A program made the translations under genes and the position numbers. The notes beneath the pieces are model-generated. The model saw only the letters and a list, made by a program, of their open reading frames with translations. It was not told the origin of the DNA and did not search any database. Source: a virus. From it: 62,861 bases of DNA. Where the stretch lies: IMG/VR virus record IMGVR_UViG_3300034069_000992, positions 1 to 62,861 of that record. One strand, written 5' to 3'. This document shows, piece by piece, positions 2,748 through 31,145 of the stretch. Within the stretch, counting starts at the first letter, position 1. Every line of letters begins with the position of its first letter.

Positions 2748-4217
2748 CTATACGAGCAGCGGATCATCGTTGCCAATAGACAGCACCTCGCGCTGTCGCA
2801 CCGAATAGAACTCCCCGTGGAATGATACCGTCGCCGTCATGGTACGGCCGTGGCGGTTCTTGGCGCCGATCAGATCGGCTTTCCCCCGCGCGGCCATCAT
2901 CTCGACCTCCCACGCCTCGTGAAGATCCTGTTTCTTTTCGTTGGTCTCCCCCTTCCTCGGCTCAGTCTGCTCTAGGTAATATTCCTCGCGGTAGATGAAC
3001 GTGACGGTGTCGGCGTCCTGCTCGAGATTGCCGGACTCCTTCAGATCCGAAAGCATCGGCCGCTTGTTCTGCCGGCCCTCAACGCCTCGCGACAACTGGT
3101 TGAGCGCAATCACGGCGATGTCGAGCGCGTGCGCCATCGCGTTGAGGAAGGCGGAGATGAAGTTCACCCGCTTACGATCGTCGTCGATCAGCTTGCCGTC
3201 GATATCAGCGGCGTAGAGCGCCACCGAGTCGACGACACAAAACGCGAGATCCTTCCCCTCTGCCTTGAGCAGCGCCTTCTTGCGCGCGCACTCACTCCAG
3301 ACGCGACGAATGTTGCCGCCGCGCAGATCTACGAAGTCGAGCGGGATGAGATCGCAGCGGTCGGCGATCTTCTCCAGCGCCATGCGCTCGCCCGGCGTCA
3401 CCTTGCCTCGCCGCAGATCGTCGTGCTTGATCCGATAGCCGAGCGCGAAACCGATATCGGTGGCAGCGCGCATGGCAAGCTGCTCCTCCGTCATCTCCGC
3501 CGACAGGTAGATGCCCGGATTGCCGTTGATCGCGTAGCCGTGCGCCGCCGACAGCGCGAGCGTCGTCTTGCCCATACCCGGTCGACCGGCAATCAGGTGG
3601 AAGCCGGGCTCGAGCGGACCCAGGATGACGTCGAGATCCGGAACCAGGTGGTTCGTCATCCCGATCGCTTCACCTTCGTCCTGGATGCGTCGGACGCGGT
3701 CGCCAGCAAGCCGCACCATGTTCCCGAGGGTTCGGACCGGCTTTGCCGTCGACCGCGTGCTGGCGGCCCAGCCAGCCGCCTCAACGCGCCCCGTGATCTC
3801 CATGATCGGCGTGTCGAAATTCGACGTCAGCATTTCGTCGGCCAACTGCACGGCGGCGCGCGCAACACGGCGATCGGAGAGCTCAATTATCTGCGCGGCG
3901 AAATCGGCGGCACCAACCACCGCCGCGGGCGAATCCACAAGCCGAGCGAGATAGTCGCCGTGCATTGCGGCTTCATCCTTGGCGAAGATCGGGCGCAGTG
4001 AGATCGCACTGGCTCGCGCTCCCTTGGCGCTGAAGCGCAGCAACGCGCTGTAGATCCGACCGTGCAAGGGTTCGGCGAAATCGTCGACCCGCAGGCGATC
4101 CGCCCAAGCGGTGATGATGGAATTGTCGATGAGCATGCCGCCGAGCAAGGCAGCTTCAGCATCGATGTTCGTCAGCAGATCAGGTGCGGTGGCTTCGTCC
4201 TGTTCGTAATAACTCAC
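2748..4217 (-). CDS. dnaB: Replicative DNA helicase DnaB
   Basis: 489 aa; DnaB N-domain followed by RecA-like domain with Walker A GRPGMGKTTLALS; GTG start overlaps the upstream stop (GTGA). Confidence 0.92.
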   Translation of the reverse strand: MSYYEQDEATAPDLLTNIDAEAALLGGMLIDNSIITAWADRLRVDDFAEPLHGRIYSALLRFSAKGARASAISLRPIFAKDEAAMHGDYLARLVDSPAAVVGAADFAAQIIELSDRRVARAAVQLADEMLTSNFDTPIMEITGRVEAAGWAASTRSTAKPVRTLGNMVRLAGDRVRRIQDEGEAIGMTNHLVPDLDVILGPLEPGFHLIAGRPGMGKTTLALSAAHGYAINGNPGIYLSAEMTEEQLAMRAATDIGFALGYRIKHDDLRRGKVTPGERMALEKIADRCDLIPLDFVDLRGGNIRRVWSECARKKALLKAEGKDLAFCVVDSVALYAADIDGKLIDDDRKRVNFISAFLNAMAHALDIAVIALNQLSRGVEGRQNKRPMLSDLKESGNLEQDADTVTFIYREEYYLEQTEPRKGETNEKKQDLHEAWEVEMMAARGKADLIGAKNRHGRTMTATVSFHGEFYSVRQREVLSIGNDDPLLV

Positions 4218-4837
4218 GCTGTGGCGCCTCCGTTGAACTTTGCCTGCTCATTGCCCCACGTCGACCATCCTGCACGCTCTTCGCGGCTGAAGATCTCGGC
4301 ATACGGACCTTCGCAATATCGCTGCACGCGCGCGAACGCCTCGTCAGGCTTGCGACTGTGCTCCCGCACCGGCGCCAGAATGATCTCGTGCACGTCCTTC
4401 GCCATCCGCCGCGCATTGCCACGGCGGCCGAGCAGGACATATTCCGCGTTCTTCCGCGTGGTGTGCCCCAGCCCCATGAACAGATCCGCTTGGATCAGCG
4501 GCAGCATCCGCATCGGTTGCGTCGCGAACGCGCGGCGCATCTTCACCCACACGAACCCCATGCCGGAATATTTGAAGCCCCACCGGTCCATCGTCTCCAG
4601 CGCTTGCGGGAGATGTGGGCCGGTCGACCACAGGAAGAGGTGGCAGTCGCGCGCGGCGATATCGAGCATCGGCATCGCGCAGATCTCTTCCCTCGTCATG
4701 GTCTGGTAATGCTTCGTCACCCCGCGATCGCTGGCAAAGTTCTGCGGGCGGGGCGGCGCGTAGCCTTTGAACGCCCATGGTGGATCGGCCATGATCGCCT
4801 TGAAGCCGCCGGGTGGCACGGACAGCGCATCGAACAT
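4214..4837 (-). CDS. MT-A70 family DNA N6-adenine methyltransferase
   Basis: IMADPPWAF catalytic DPPW motif; start ATG 4837 overlaps the GcrA-like stop (TGATG); longer start at 4879 possible. Confidence 0.85.
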   Translation of the reverse strand: MFDALSVPPGGFKAIMADPPWAFKGYAPPRPQNFASDRGVTKHYQTMTREEICAMPMLDIAARDCHLFLWSTGPHLPQALETMDRWGFKYSGMGFVWVKMRRAFATQPMRMLPLIQADLFMGLGHTTRKNAEYVLLGRRGNARRMAKDVHEIILAPVREHSRKPDEAFARVQRYCEGPYAEIFSREERAGWSTWGNEQAKFNGGATA

Positions 4838-5145
4838 CAAACGGCCTGCCAGCCAACGCGGGCAACTAAACCGTCCCACATCTTCATCGCCTGTATGTAG
4901 GCGAGCCCGACCTCTCGCGAAGCTTCGAGAATGTTGCGGTCCTGATCTGCTACCAAGTCGATCAGACGCTCGAATTTAGCCTCGTTTGTCTCCACCGGAT
5001 TAACGCGGCGATCAAGACTTAGCCTGTGCGCCTTGCCCATAACCATGTTGCGGGTGATGCCCATGATCTTGCCGATGTCGGAAGCTGTCATGCCCTTATC
5101 CCAGAGTTCGGTCAGCTTTGTGATCTTGTCGTCTGTCCAAACCAT
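4837..5145 (-). CDS. gcrA: GcrA-like cell-cycle regulator, N-terminal DNA-binding domain only
   Basis: MVWTDDKITKLTELWDKGMTASDIGKIMGITRNMVMGKAHRLSL matches the GcrA N-domain signature (WTD..LW..G.SAS.I...G.TRN.V.GK.HRL.L). This is the real gene inside the 364-aa track ORF 4837..5931. Confidence 0.8.
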   Translation of the reverse strand: MVWTDDKITKLTELWDKGMTASDIGKIMGITRNMVMGKAHRLSLDRRVNPVETNEAKFERLIDLVADQDRNILEASREVGLAYIQAMKMWDGLVARVGWQAV

Positions 5146-5723
5146 TATCGACTTCCTCCAAATAAGATCTGATCGCGCCACGGGCGGTGATAGTCGGGCA
5201 GAAGTGACAGCCCGAAATCGAGGATGCCCGCCGCCTCGGCCGCGTCGTGAATGTCTGTGTGCCAGCCGTATGACTCGCAGCGCTGCATCGCGAGTTCCTT
5301 TGGATCTTCGCCGGGCAGATACGGCTTGCCCTTCTTCGTCTTGTCTCGCTTGAAGCCGCTGCCGCGACCGATGAAGTGCTTGCGCCAGGTCGAGATGTCG
5401 ACGCAGTAGCAATGCGCCTTTACCTGGAACGCGAACTTCTCGACGATCGCACCAAGCCCGATCAGGCGGTATGCGTTCTGCGGGTTCATGTTCTCCGCGA
5501 TGTGCTGCGCCTCGAAGAAGAAGTGGCTGATCCCTCCCTGCGATCGCATCTCGAGGTATTTTTCCCGCAACCACATCTCGAGCGCGGCGCACGGCTCTCC
5601 GATCGCGTTCGCGGCGCCGGGCAGCGTGAAGGCGTCCAGGAACGGGCGCTGCATCCCTGGTCGGTGCAGCGCCCATCCTGTCGTCGTCGCGAGATCCAGT
5701 GCGAGGACGGCAGCTTGCTTCAT
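5145..5723 (-). CDS. RuvC-like Holliday junction resolvase
   Basis: VLALDLATTTGWA N-terminal catalytic Asp motif and C-terminal DIHDAAEAAGI, typical of the RuvC fold; stop overlaps the next start (TAATG). Confidence 0.7.
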   Translation of the reverse strand: MKQAAVLALDLATTTGWALHRPGMQRPFLDAFTLPGAANAIGEPCAALEMWLREKYLEMRSQGGISHFFFEAQHIAENMNPQNAYRLIGLGAIVEKFAFQVKAHCYCVDISTWRKHFIGRGSGFKRDKTKKGKPYLPGEDPKELAMQRCESYGWHTDIHDAAEAAGILDFGLSLLPDYHRPWRDQILFGGSR

Positions 5724-10404: not shown

Positions 10405-10454
10405 GAGCCCGGGGCGCTGCCGAGGCGGCGCCCCTAACCACGAAGGAAGCATGC

Positions 10455-21864: not shown

Positions 21865-22078
21865 ATCGATTTGCCGTTGTCGTTTCGCATAATTCTCGAA
21901 AATCTCGATGTGACCAATTCAGCGGTCCACAACCGCTATGGCCGAAGGGGTCGGAAAGAAGGACCCGGACCCCGGGGGGGGTGCATATGTCCGCGCCCGC
22001 GCACCCGTACCTGTGCGCCCGCGTGCAAGGACTCGCGCGCCAATCTCCAGCCCGGCGCGAGCGCGCGCAGCGTGCTTC

Positions 22079-22097
22079 ATTCGCAATATTTGCGAAT
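22079..22097. promoter_or_regulatory. Perfect 19-bp palindrome (candidate operator) abutting a candidate -35 TTGCAA
   Basis: ATTCGCAA-TAT-TTGCGAAT at 22079-22097. TTGCAA at 22102-22107 and CATTTA 17 nt downstream; about 80 nt upstream of the first ORF of the ribozyme-containing operon. Confidence 0.45.
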
Positions 22098-22185
22098 TGT
22101 GTTGCAACCTCCGATCAACTGGCGCATTTAGACCATGCCAGCACCGGGAAGCCCGAGTCGCCACGGCAGAAACGAAGGAACTACG

Positions 22186-22434
22186 ATGACACTCGACACC
22201 ATCGACAGCACCGAACTAGCGCGCCGCTTCGCGCTCAACCCTTTTAACCTTGGCGGCATTGCCAACGCCCCACGCCTGAGCGCCCACGACTTCAGCGCCG
22301 CGTGCTTCGAGGCTCAAGGCCGCGCCGCCTATCCGCATGGCCGTAACCCTTACAACGCTGGCACCATGGCTAACACGCGTTGGGCGCGCGGTTGGCATCA
22401 GGCCGATGATGCCACGATCGCAAAGGAGGCTTGA
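22186..22434 (+). CDS. Rmf/CrpP-like small protein
   Basis: GAAGGA SD. GRAAYPHGRNPYNAGTMANTRWARGW resembles the RMF/CrpP G..G....PY.....W..GW pattern. Confidence 0.45.
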   Translation: MTLDTIDSTELARRFALNPFNLGGIANAPRLSAHDFSAACFEAQGRAAYPHGRNPYNAGTMANTRWARGWHQADDATIAKEA

Positions 22435-22437
22435 GCG

Positions 22438-22680
22438 ATGCGCCACTATTTCACCGATGCGATCGCCTACACCAAGCCGGAGCCGCATCATCGCCTTTGC
22501 CTTCAGTTTGACGCGGTGACACTTCAGCAACGCGGCAAAGACAATTTCGCTGTGCGCTACGGCAAGCAAGTTGATGCAGATGCTACATATGCGGAAGCGT
22601 GTGCACTGTTAGGCGCGGCCTTGATGCATCAAGCCGCATGTGGGGGCCTGTTAGACAATCGAGAGAAAGGCGAACGCTAA
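22438..22680 (+). CDS. Hypothetical protein
   Basis: 80-aa ORF 3 nt after the upstream stop; its TAA is followed immediately by hammerhead 1. Confidence 0.55.
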   Translation: MRHYFTDAIAYTKPEPHHRLCLQFDAVTLQQRGKDNFAVRYGKQVDADATYAEACALLGAALMHQAACGGLLDNREKGER

Positions 22681-22736
22681 GGCGAAACGGGGCGCACGCC
22701 CCGTCCGCTAGGCTGGCATCCTAGCGCTGATGAGCC
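22681..22736 (+). ncRNA. Type II hammerhead self-cleaving ribozyme (HHR-1)
   Basis: GGC-GAAA-[CGGGGC GCAC GCCCCG]-UC|-[CGCUAGG CUGGCAU CCUAGCG]-CUGAUGA-GCC. Full conserved core, GUC cleavage triplet; predicted cut between 22705 and 22706. Confidence 0.88.
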
Positions 22737-22759
22737 TGCCACGAATGAAAGAACACACG

Positions 22760-22990
22760 ATGCCCGTATCCCTCGCCAAGTCGGTTGACCTGTCCAAGCG
22801 CACCGCACCCGCACCCGTGATCGTGTGCACCGTTGACATGGGCGCACGCCCCGCCCGCATCGATCGCAAGCGCGCACCTAGCGCCAAGGCTCGCACCGTG
22901 TCGCGCCGTACCGCACGCCGCATGAAGTTGACCGCCGCCTTCCTCGCGTTCGCCTTCCCTGCGGACCTCTCCGCCTTCGCTGCCCGCTGA
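22760..22990 (+). CDS. Hypothetical basic protein
   Basis: ATG 22760, about 24 nt after HHR-1; low-complexity, coding status less certain. Confidence 0.4.
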   Translation: MPVSLAKSVDLSKRTAPAPVIVCTVDMGARPARIDRKRAPSAKARTVSRRTARRMKLTAAFLAFAFPADLSAFAAR

Positions 22991-23005: not shown

Positions 23006-23617
23006 ATGTCTGATTTCACCACCCTTTCCGTTCCCGCAGATGCCACGCCAGCGGACAAGGTGCGCGCCGCGTGCAATGCGCTCGGCCTTACGATCCGCGC
23101 CGAGTTCGTGCCCTTTAGCAAGTCGCGCAATGCGAAGCCCCGCGACGGGCAGGACAAGCCGTGGCGTTCGCTGAACTGGAACATCACGCTTGAGCGCAAC
23201 GGGCGCGACGTGATGACGACGGAATACAGCGCTGGCGAAGGCAATTGCCCCGCGTCCAAACTGCCAGCAACCGCGCTCCGCCGCGCGCAATATACCGATG
23301 CGACGGCGCGCCGGATGGCCGTAGACCATGAAATCGAAACCGGGCGGGAAGCGCGGTTTACCTTCGGCGGATACCTCAAGCAAAATGGTCCGCAGATACA
23401 GCCGGACGCGCCAAGCGTGATTATGTCGCTAGTGCTGGACTCGTCCGTGCTGGATGCTGGCAGCTTCGAGGATTGGGCGGCGGAATACGGTTACGATACC
23501 GATAGCCGTTCGGCGGAGCGCACCTATCAGGCGTGTTTAAAAACCGCGTTGAAGCTGCGCGCCGCGATTGGTGAAGTCGGGCTGGAATTGCTCCGCGCTG
23601 CCGGGGAGGATTTCTGA
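23006..23617 (+). CDS. Hypothetical protein
   Basis: 203-aa ORF with protein-like composition. Confidence 0.6.
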   Translation: MSDFTTLSVPADATPADKVRAACNALGLTIRAEFVPFSKSRNAKPRDGQDKPWRSLNWNITLERNGRDVMTTEYSAGEGNCPASKLPATALRRAQYTDATARRMAVDHEIETGREARFTFGGYLKQNGPQIQPDAPSVIMSLVLDSSVLDAGSFEDWAAEYGYDTDSRSAERTYQACLKTALKLRAAIGEVGLELLRAAGEDF

Positions 23618-23817
23618 TGGCTAAGAAATCCGGCTTCAATCTGTCGTTCGACGTTCGCAATGCGGCTTTTGACGACGGCAACCGGCCATACGAAGCCGCG
23701 CGCATCCTTCGCGAAATCGCCGATAAATTAGAGGCTCAAGCCTATGTGGGTGGCGGCCACGTCCGCGATGTGAACGGCAACACGATAGGCCATTGGGAGA
23801 TGACACCAACCGCATAG
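23617..23817 (+). CDS. Hypothetical protein
   Basis: 66-aa ORF, TGATG coupling; its TAG overlaps the first base of HHR-2. Confidence 0.55.
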   Translation: MAKKSGFNLSFDVRNAAFDDGNRPYEAARILREIADKLEAQAYVGGGHVRDVNGNTIGHWEMTPTA

Positions 23818-23879
23818 GCGAAACGCTCCGCCACCGTGCGGGGCGTCCAACCGGATCGGGAACCGGTTGCTGATGAGCC
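23817..23879 (+). ncRNA. Type II hammerhead self-cleaving ribozyme (HHR-2)
   Basis: GGC-GAAA-[CGCUCCGC CACCGU GCGGGGCG]-UC|-[CAACCGG AUCGGGAA CCGGUUG]-CUGAUGA-GCC; predicted cut between 23847 and 23848. Confidence 0.88.
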
Positions 23880-23903
23880 AGCCCTAGAAACGAAGGATTG
23901 CAC

Positions 23904-24227
23904 ATGCGCTATTTTGTCACCGTCACGCGCGACACCACGGAAAGCACGGTTATCACCGTTGACGCCGCAAACATGACAGCCGCGCGCGACGTCGCGATTG
24001 AGAAGGCCCGGAACGAAGCTGGCGCCTATAATTGGGTTCCGGACGATTGCACCGGTGGCGATCCGTATTTGGCTGATCCCGATGAGAAATTGCAGACAGC
24101 GGACGACGACGCGGACGACGACGCTTGCGGGCAATGCGATGGCACCGGCACCACCGACGCAATGGGGCGCGTAGAGCAATGCCCGGTCTGCGACGGTACC
24201 GGCACCCTCCAGACCGGCGAAATCTGA
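23904..24227 (+). CDS. Small protein with DnaJ-type CxxCxGxG zinc-finger pair
   Basis: CGQCDGTGT...CPVCDGTGT; ATG 23904 preceded by the GAAACGAAGGA leader. Confidence 0.6.
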   Translation: MRYFVTVTRDTTESTVITVDAANMTAARDVAIEKARNEAGAYNWVPDDCTGGDPYLADPDEKLQTADDDADDDACGQCDGTGTTDAMGRVEQCPVCDGTGTLQTGEI

Positions 24228-24332: not shown

Positions 24333-24532
24333 TGCGCCTTTACCGCCTGATTGTGACAGAGCCGGCTCTGGGCGTAGTGAAGCGCGAGCGCTTCAACGCC
24401 GCTACCGATCTCGCCGCCGAACGCATCGCCGGGGATGCTTGGAACGCACCCTATTCGATCGCTGAACCGGGCCGCTATCGCCTGAAGCTGTACCGCAGCG
24501 GGGAACGCCGCCCGTTCCACACGATAGGCTAA
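24332..24532 (+). CDS. Hypothetical protein
   Basis: MRLYRLIVTEPALGVVKRERF... (C-terminal part of track ORF 24125..24532); stop 2 nt before HHR-3. Confidence 0.5.
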   Translation: MRLYRLIVTEPALGVVKRERFNAATDLAAERIAGDAWNAPYSIAEPGRYRLKLYRSGERRPFHTIG

Positions 24533-24534
24533 TT

Positions 24535-24596
24535 GCCGAAACGCCGCGCCTTGCGCGTGGCGTCCACCGGAACCGTCCACCCGGTGCTGATGAGGC
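24535..24596 (+). ncRNA. Type II hammerhead self-cleaving ribozyme (HHR-3)
   Basis: GCC-GAAA-[CGCCGCGC CUUGC GCGUGGCG]-UC|-[CACCGG AACCGUCCAC CCGGUG]-CUGAUGA-GGC. Stem II is swapped (GCC/GGC) relative to HHR-1/2; predicted cut between 24564 and 24565. Confidence 0.88.
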
Positions 24597-24617
24597 AGGA
24601 CACGAAACGAAGGAACG

Positions 24618-31080: not shown

Positions 31081-31130
31081 ACACGCAAAGGGAAGGCCCG
31101 GTGGATCACTCCGCCGGGCCTTCTTCGTTT
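31081..31130. terminator. Bidirectional intrinsic terminator between the convergent plus block and the minus-strand late operon
   Basis: GAAGGCCCGG (31092-31101) / CCGGGCCTTC (31114-31123). Followed by TTCTTCGTTT on the plus strand and CCTTTGCGTGT on the minus strand. Confidence 0.75.
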
Positions 31131-31145
31131 CAGCAGTGGTGCAGA

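Follow-up and report, generated by a model that had tools for sequence, protein, structure and literature searches.

The family of type II hammerhead ribozymes has thousands of members. In 2011, Perreault et al. (PMC3088659) described hammerheads lying between the genes of phages, including sets of several that flank genes in prophages, and hypothesized that they process a long transcript into mRNAs of single genes or gene blocks. Most type II hammerheads align stems I and II by a pseudoknot, of about 4 bp or more, between loop I and the nucleotides 3' of stem II, and shortening this pseudoknot slows cleavage from 20-fold to more than 100-fold (PMC3088659). The three hammerheads of Agrobacterium tumefaciens cleaved upon expression in E. 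coli (PMC3088659). In haloviruses HF1/HF2, the hammerhead HHphage precedes a start codon by 13 nt on an early polycistronic transcript, whose mapped 5' end coincides with the cleavage site (PMC3088659). In Desulfovibrio vulgaris, three type II hammerheads beside phage genes, two of them about 300 nt apart, cleave in vivo as well as in vitro, which supports activity of the type II class in cells (PMC8782182). What phage and bacterial hammerheads are for remains a matter of hypothesis (PMC6765202).

We analyzed a stretch of 62,861 nt (positions 1 to 62,861 of IMG/VR virus record IMGVR_UViG_3300034069_000992), hereafter the window, with attention to a candidate hammerhead, HH1, at 22680-22741 on the + strand. 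By its gene content the window is an uncultivated siphophage of about 62.9 kb with 62% GC, and it appears to span an entire metagenomic contig, since a homology search places its protein on a contig of 62861 bases. Its proteins match DnaB helicase, RecT, a DnaG-type primase, an SNF2 helicase, a lambda-type portal and a gpA-type TerL, and because a tape measure protein is encoded, the phage is long-tailed. Megablast and blastn against 50,697 phage records revealed no close cultured relative, the best match being 96 nt at 73% identity, and no isolate has a portal protein with more than 33% identity to that of the window.

HH1 shares the core, the capped stems I and III, the short open stem II and the pseudoknot with the RF02276 type II hammerheads of PMC3088659, including the A. 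tumefaciens prophage trio. As in the clusters described in that paper, same-orientation copies surround single genes or short blocks in a phage operon, and the flanking genes are variable and mostly of unknown function. Unlike the examples given there, the host genome is new, an uncultivated siphophage without a close isolate. HH1 and D. vulgaris loci 1-3, found by cyPhyRNA-seq, are all type II hammerheads beside phage-like genes; the D. vulgaris copies reside in prophage regions of a bacterial chromosome, whereas HH1 is in a free phage contig (PMC8782182). Like HHphage as presented in PMC3088659, HH1 sits a few nucleotides upstream of a start codon in a presumed polycistronic phage transcript, but HHphage belongs to an archaeal virus and has a variant core, while the core of HH1 is fully canonical. 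HH1 is thus an added member of a known ribozyme family, and nothing structural distinguishes it from type II hammerheads.

Sequence and structure of HH1

A first-pass annotation of the window had read positions 22681-22736 as a complete type II hammerhead right after the stop codon of ORF 22438..22680. Direct inspection of the sequence gave exactly the same letters, and the score against RF02276 and a pair-by-pair check bear the reading out. The upstream ORF (+ strand, 80 aa) has a weak match to phrog_6500, and its TAA stop codon at 22678-22680 directly adjoins HH1. From 5' to 3', the element consists of a stem II strand, GAAA, the stem III hairpin, UC, the stem I hairpin, CUGAUGA and the second stem II strand. 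Stems I and III are capped by loops and stem II is open, which is the type II permutation.

The 5' strand of stem II, GGC (22681..22683, positions 11.3-11.1), pairs with GCC (22734..22736, positions 10.1-10.3) through G22681-C22736, G22682-C22735 and C22683-G22734, and A22680 of the stop codon can form an optional fourth pair with U22737. The GAAA at 22684..22687 supplies G12, A13, A14 and A15.1. Stem III (22687..22704) is built of CGGGGC/GCCCCG with a GCAC loop, and stem I (22706..22726) of CGCUAGG/CCUAGCG with the 7-nt loop CUGGCAU at 22713-22719. Between them lies C17, with the predicted scissile bond at 22705..22706, and CUGAUGA at 22727..22733 supplies C3 to A9. A type II core has C3 U4 G5 A6 N7 G8 A9, G12 A13 A14 and H17 at the cleavage site. 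All of these are intact in HH1 (CUGAUGA at 22727-22733, GAA at 22684-22686 and C17 at 22705, an H17 and not G), as are the standard pairs adjoining the core, G22734-C22683 (10.1-11.1), C22706-G22726 (1.1-2.1) and A22687-U22704 (15.1-16.1). The core, the A15.1:U16.1 pair and C17 listed by the first-pass annotation were therefore all found in place pair by pair. Its stem lengths were also correct, 7 bp for stem I and 6 bp plus a tetraloop for stem III, or 7 bp when A15.1:U16.1 is counted. It had cautioned that stem II was only 3-4 bp, and stems II, I and III indeed measure 3-4, 7 and 7 bp; a short stem II is normal in the type II family.

We searched the whole window, on both strands, with all 4227 Rfam families. 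RF02276 (Hammerhead_II) matched 22680-22744 on the + strand at 42.7 bits (gathering score 37; E = 2.1e-5), and the match covered model positions 1-66, the full length. This covariance-model search, which had been proposed as a check on the hammerhead reading, was passed, and the predicted cut at 22705/22706 is the one given earlier. Only three matches in the window exceeded the curated Rfam thresholds, all of them to Hammerhead_II (49.0, 42.7 and 37.3 bits), and a permissive Rfam scan of the window found no other ribozyme family. For the pattern GAAAC..GUH..CUGAUGA, 3 instances are present in the window where 0.15 would be expected, and none of 100 shuffles contained 3 or more. With every sequence-level feature that defines RF02276 present, HH1 is, as judged from its sequence, a genuine type II hammerhead.

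One feature had been missed. In loop I, UGGCA (22714-22718) is complementary to the 3' tail UGCCA (22737..22741), a 5-bp pseudoknot with a duplex energy of about -7.3 kcal/mol. Because loop I pairs with this tail, the functional element ends near 22741 and not at 22736; the 56-nt extent of 22681-22736 holds as a reading of the letters but stops short of the tail. This pairing is the tertiary contact that characterizes type II hammerheads, and going by base complementarity HH1 has it. Loop I and tail are complementary over 3-6 bp in all 13 hammerheads compared from this phage and its relatives, and their sequences differ, for example GUCC/GGAC, UGGUC/GACCA, UGUUC/GAACA, UAGCC/GGCUA, UGGGC/GCCCA and AUGGCC/GGCCAU. 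Cognate loops and tails pair over a mean of 4.54 bp versus 2.88 bp for non-cognate combinations, and the observed value was reached in 0 of 20000 permutations.

The operon, its three hammerheads and their proposed role

HH1 is the first of three hammerheads that lie within 1.9 kb on the coding (+) strand, each between a stop codon and the next ribosome-binding site (RBS). HH2 (23816..23887, +, 49.0 bits) has its predicted cut after 23847, and the first nucleotide of its stem II is also the G of the preceding stop codon, TAG (23815-23817). HH3 (24534..24604, +) barely exceeds the threshold of 37 with 37.3 bits; it begins 1 nt past the TAA at 24530-24532, is predicted to be cut after 24564, and has a pseudoknot between GUCC (24575-24578) and GGAC (24598-24601). 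All three thus begin on, or 1-2 nt from, the stop codon of the preceding gene, and the presence of several copies on the coding strand around single genes or short blocks is the arrangement of the clustered intercistronic class.

The + strand operon appears to start in a divergent region near 21865-22186. Where its genes meet the structural genes of the - strand, positions 31090-31131 hold a strong 16-bp hairpin (GGGAAGGCCCGGUGGA...UCCGCCGGGCCUUC) followed by UUCGUUUC, and this hairpin with its U-run is probably the end of the operon and a bidirectional terminator. A terminator scan gave nothing terminator-like for about 700 nt around HH1, nor was a convincing internal promoter found.

Gene boundaries from 22.1 to 24.6 kb were set by homologues. 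The gene downstream of HH1 (22760..22990, +) encodes a small basic protein, MPVSLAK...FLAFAFPADLSAFAAR, which is conserved in related phages, and it is preceded by a weak, purine-rich RBS at 22747-22753. As listed, this ORF runs from 22730 to 22990 and opens at an ATG inside CUGAUGA, with further in-frame ATGs at 22745 and 22760. Homologue starts align with ATG 22760 (M-P/A-VSLAK), which shows that the start at 22730 is spurious and that ATG 22760 is the conserved one. The gain is mainly one of annotation, three ribozymes identified and one start codon discarded. A recurring leader, the RBS ACGAAGGA, occurs at 10440, 22172, 23890, 24607 and 26068, where the motif starts 9-10 nt before the start codon; it precedes five + strand genes, including the first of the operon and those after HH2 and HH3. 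The gene after HH2 (23904-24227) encodes a small CxxC zinc-ribbon protein with weak matches to the phage antitermination protein Q-like phrog_6060 (E = 1.6e-4) and to the DnaJ and anti-TRAP zinc-finger families. Its product could be a regulator, with an mRNA that HH2 and HH3 would release.

We also looked at hammerheads elsewhere in IMG/VR. A strict regular-expression finder missed real copies (e.g. L003 4428-4491), and a covariance model built from ten hammerheads, R1, was used instead. A generic type II pattern is present in at least 120 IMG/VR stretches, and among the matches listed R1 confirms 72 hammerheads in 80 loci. The confirmed copies form clusters, so clusters like that of the window are common in phage contigs. 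Some are dense arrays, with 8 copies in 3.4 kb in L117 (6221-9598) and at least 6 in 4.4 kb in L109 (7252-11603). We measured the layout of 85 type II hammerheads from the window and loci L003-L175, among the matches listed. In 53 of the 85 (62%), the stop codon of an ORF of at least 40 codons ends between -5 and +1 nt from stem II, compared with 4.2% of random same-strand positions. Most commonly a TAG contributes its G as the start of stem II, and the median distance from stem II to the following start codon is 23.5 nt. Position 1 of RF02276 is a conserved A, which may be the A of the stop codon. The layout agrees with a compact cassette that runs from a stop codon through hammerhead, pseudoknot tail and RBS to a start codon. 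Quantification of this stop-to-RBS packing was not found in the available part of PMC3088659. Genome compaction alone could account for much of the packing; if the layout is instead functional, it may constrain models of what the hammerheads do.

We consider it likely that HH1 (22680-22741) is a catalytically competent type II hammerhead within a polycistronic transcript, which it would cleave in cis into mRNAs for blocks of genes, the role that Perreault et al. put forward for prophage clusters. The analysis shows that HH1 matches the family in sequence and structure, that the pairing covaries, that the placement is conserved and that the element fits between stop codon and RBS; cleavage in vivo and the fate of the mRNAs are inferred. 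The transcript would run from about 21865-22186 to the hairpin at about 31090-31131. Once HH1 is transcribed, stems III and I would fold, the 3-4 bp stem II would close, the loop I/tail pseudoknot would align stems I and II, and the RNA would cut itself after C22705. The upstream mRNA would then end 25 nt beyond the stop codon at 22680, within the GC-rich stem III hairpin and with a 2',3'-cyclic phosphate, and the downstream mRNA would have its 5'-OH at 22706, where the stem I hairpin starts, with the RBS and ATG 22760 beyond that hairpin. Together, HH1, HH2 and HH3 would split the operon into blocks of two genes, three genes, about two genes and the remainder, and these mRNAs could then differ in stability and translation. 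Phage T7 offers a parallel, as RNase III sites between its genes turn long transcripts into defined mRNAs with hairpin-protected ends. Both are intercistronic structured RNAs, but T7 uses a host nuclease whereas HH1 would cut itself, and the HH1 products would carry a 2',3'-cyclic phosphate and a 5'-OH, unlike those of the protein-nuclease route.

A cleaving HH1 might serve down-regulation and not mRNA maturation, exposing the downstream or the upstream mRNA to decay in the manner of glmS; we regard this as distinctly unlikely. On this view, ribosomes that terminate at the adjoining stop codon might also gate cleavage. The stop codon does adjoin or overlap stem II in most phage type II hammerheads and, judged by the known footprint of a ribosome, one terminating there would sit over stem II, the GAAA and half of stem III. 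The weak RBS after HH1 (22747-22753) would also suit down-regulation. However, the genes after HH2 and HH3 have strong ACGAAGGA ribosome-binding sites, as does the first gene of the operon, and the tight packing of stop codon and hammerhead may merely reflect genome compaction. The predicted ends point the same way, with a 3' product that opens with a stable hairpin and a 5'-OH and a 5' product that closes in a GC-rich hairpin. Such ends usually protect bacterial mRNA from 5'-end-dependent RNase E and from 3' exonucleases.

Hammerheads and element X in related phages

A search with the neighbouring 203-aa protein (23006-23617) gave 275 homologues at E <= 1e-5, and many of these are encoded on contigs of 56-70 kb; homologues on contigs of about 58-62 kb are binned with Alphaproteobacteria and other groups. 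We fetched loci around these homologues and scanned all of them with R1 and some with Rfam. The first two related IMG/VR loci, L001 and L002, contain no hammerhead. Type II hammerheads lie at the corresponding junctions between genes in L003/L004/L005 (three copies with Rfam scores of 33.9-49.7 bits), in L091 (two copies, 49.4 and 44.4 Rfam bits) and in L008, L052 and L222 (two copies each). L056 has one about 1.5 kb downstream of the homologue, away from the flanking junctions, and L044 and L068 contain weaker candidates. In the relatives that carry hammerheads, the 203-aa protein shares 34-60% amino-acid identity with that of the window. Altogether, hammerheads are found in about 8 distinct phages among about 115 loci with this gene family; most loci are without one, so they are dispensable for the lineage.

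Across these copies, 93% of the cells in stems I-III are paired, compensatory changes on both sides are seen in 11 of 14 pairs, and sliding the partner columns lowers the pairing to 29-42%. The alignment leans towards structure because it was fitted to the model, and a MAFFT-based count agrees with the model-fitted count of covariation. Two hammerhead-like sequences have altered cores: L008 3711-3793 reads CUGAUGU (A9 to U) and retains a 5-bp loop/tail pseudoknot, while L068 166-238 has the cleavage triplet GGC instead of GUC. They may be inactive relics or tolerated variants.

The patchy distribution, about 8 of some 115 loci, is also what would be expected if the hammerheads were selfish or mobile intergenic cassettes that spread among stop-to-RBS slots with little benefit to the phage. 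Copies inside one phage differ from one another, the upstream gene varies while the cassette and its RBS leader recur, and elsewhere up to 8 copies crowd into 3.4 kb (L117), all of which would agree with mobility. Against it, the surroundings of the copies showed no transposase and neither terminal repeats nor target duplications. Moreover, a hammerhead lies directly upstream of the same orthologous small gene in four diverged phages (the window, L003, L008 and L091), which argues for retention at that site. We judge the mobile-cassette explanation quite improbable, and it would in any case be compatible with the processing role proposed above.

In sister phages that have no hammerheads (L006/L007, L010, L019, L094 and L095), the stop-to-RBS slots hold an unclassified GC-rich structured RNA of 90-130 nt, which we call element X. 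It occurs in L010 at 3246-3341 and 4860-4962; in L006 at 3256-3350, 4427-4533 and 5615-5712; in L019 at about 1723-1830; in L094 at 2634-2770, 2946-3085, 4094-4234 and 4700-4820; and in L095 at 919-1032, 1504-1640, 2746-2890 and 3413-3539. Within the window it was not found. In L010 and L006/L007 it is directly upstream of the orthologous small gene, and in sister phages it is followed by an equivalent RBS leader (GAACGAAGGAACGAAC). Its form is roughly GGCG(C/A)GC, hairpin 1, (G)CCGCC, a long hairpin 2, GGCG, A(C)AAGCC and more. The topology is that of the hammerhead, an open basal pairing with two hairpins, but the hammerhead core is absent. Pairing in hairpin 1 reaches 98.5%, and five compensatory pairs stand above a base, GGCG.GC/GC.CGCC, that hardly varies. 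The first hairpin of element X in L010 resembles stem III of an L003 hammerhead in both stem and loop (GCGCAUAGC).

On short inputs, element X matched no Rfam family even at E <= 10. This speaks against twister, twister-sister, pistol, hatchet and HDV-like ribozymes, and threading onto an HDV-like fold by eye also failed. An N4-like hairpin promoter, which would go with a phage-encoded RNA polymerase, was rejected: of the two largest proteins, the first is a tape measure and the second gave no match to a polymerase. Element X could be a degenerate hammerhead, a site bound by a nuclease or other protein, or something new. A bolder view is that the slot cassettes are interchangeable, that element X is an analogue of the hammerhead (a new self-cleaving or nuclease-directing RNA), and that cleavage is gated by translation termination. 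We hold this to be rather unlikely. The lineage nonetheless offers a natural comparison, with a hammerhead, another structured RNA or neither at the same junction in close relatives, and such a comparison could help to test the purpose of phage hammerheads, a question open in the literature (PMC6765202).

Competing folds and minor sequence features

The thermodynamic model that we used counts neither the pseudoknot nor the tertiary contacts of the core. In this pseudoknot-free model of 22680-22744, a competing fold at -29.2 kcal/mol lies below the hammerhead fold at -27.6 kcal/mol, a difference of 1.6. The competitor pairs the 5' GGCG with CGCU at 22706-22709 and has a probability of about 0.55-0.63 in the pseudoknot-free ensemble, where stem I reaches about 0.3 and stem II less than 0.03. 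A strongly preferred alternative fold had been named in advance as grounds for giving up the hammerhead; the one found is favored by those 1.6 kcal/mol only, in a model that leaves out the pseudoknot. For HH3 the hammerhead fold is itself the minimum free energy (MFE) fold, and the MFE fold of HH2 retains stems I-III plus only a small extra helix. We therefore take the energy of the competing fold as a caveat on HH1 that this model would suggest, and not as a refutation.

It is possible that HH1 is trapped, kinetically or thermodynamically, in the competing fold and persists as an uncut pair of intercistronic hairpins, which would stabilize mRNA ends or pause ribosomes or exonucleases. The hammerhead fold is not the MFE fold of 22680-22744, and sister phages hold hairpin elements other than hammerheads at the same slot, as a trapped HH1 would lead one to expect. 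Yet all catalytic-core positions are intact, and the pseudoknot (-7.3 kcal/mol, outside the model) aligns stems I and II and covaries in relatives. Hairpins alone, moreover, give no reason for at least 13 invariant unpaired core nucleotides across phages that have diverged by the measure of 34-60%. A trapped HH1 is accordingly very improbable in our estimation. Finally, although HH1 is 65% GC and short motifs like GAAA are common, a chance resemblance in GC-rich DNA or the hairpins of an intrinsic terminator are effectively refuted as its origin by the Rfam score (E = 2.1e-5, over the curated threshold), by the three pattern hits against 0.15 expected, by the covariation of stems and pseudoknot in orthologous copies, and, for a terminator, which requires a GC-rich hairpin and then a U-run, by the lack of a U-run after either hairpin (CCGCUAGG after stem III, CUGAUGAG after stem I) and of any terminator-like site nearby.

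 At 10411-10434, right after a TGA, there is a perfect 10-bp GC-rich hairpin (GGGGCGCUGCC GAGG GGCGGCGCCCC) with no U-run; it sits before UAACC-ACGAAGGA-AUG and is another intercistronic hairpin without the look of a terminator. Inside the gene downstream of HH1, positions 22840-22858 contain an 18/19 copy of stem III and the cleavage site, GGGCGCACGCCCCG(U>C)CCGC, followed at 22877-22884 by an exact CCTAGCGC, the 3' strand of stem I. The copy has neither GAAA nor CUGAUGA. We considered it as a degenerate second hammerhead or a decoy and rejected this, as it encodes GARPAR; because GARPAR is conserved in the L008 homologue, the copy is probably a coding coincidence.
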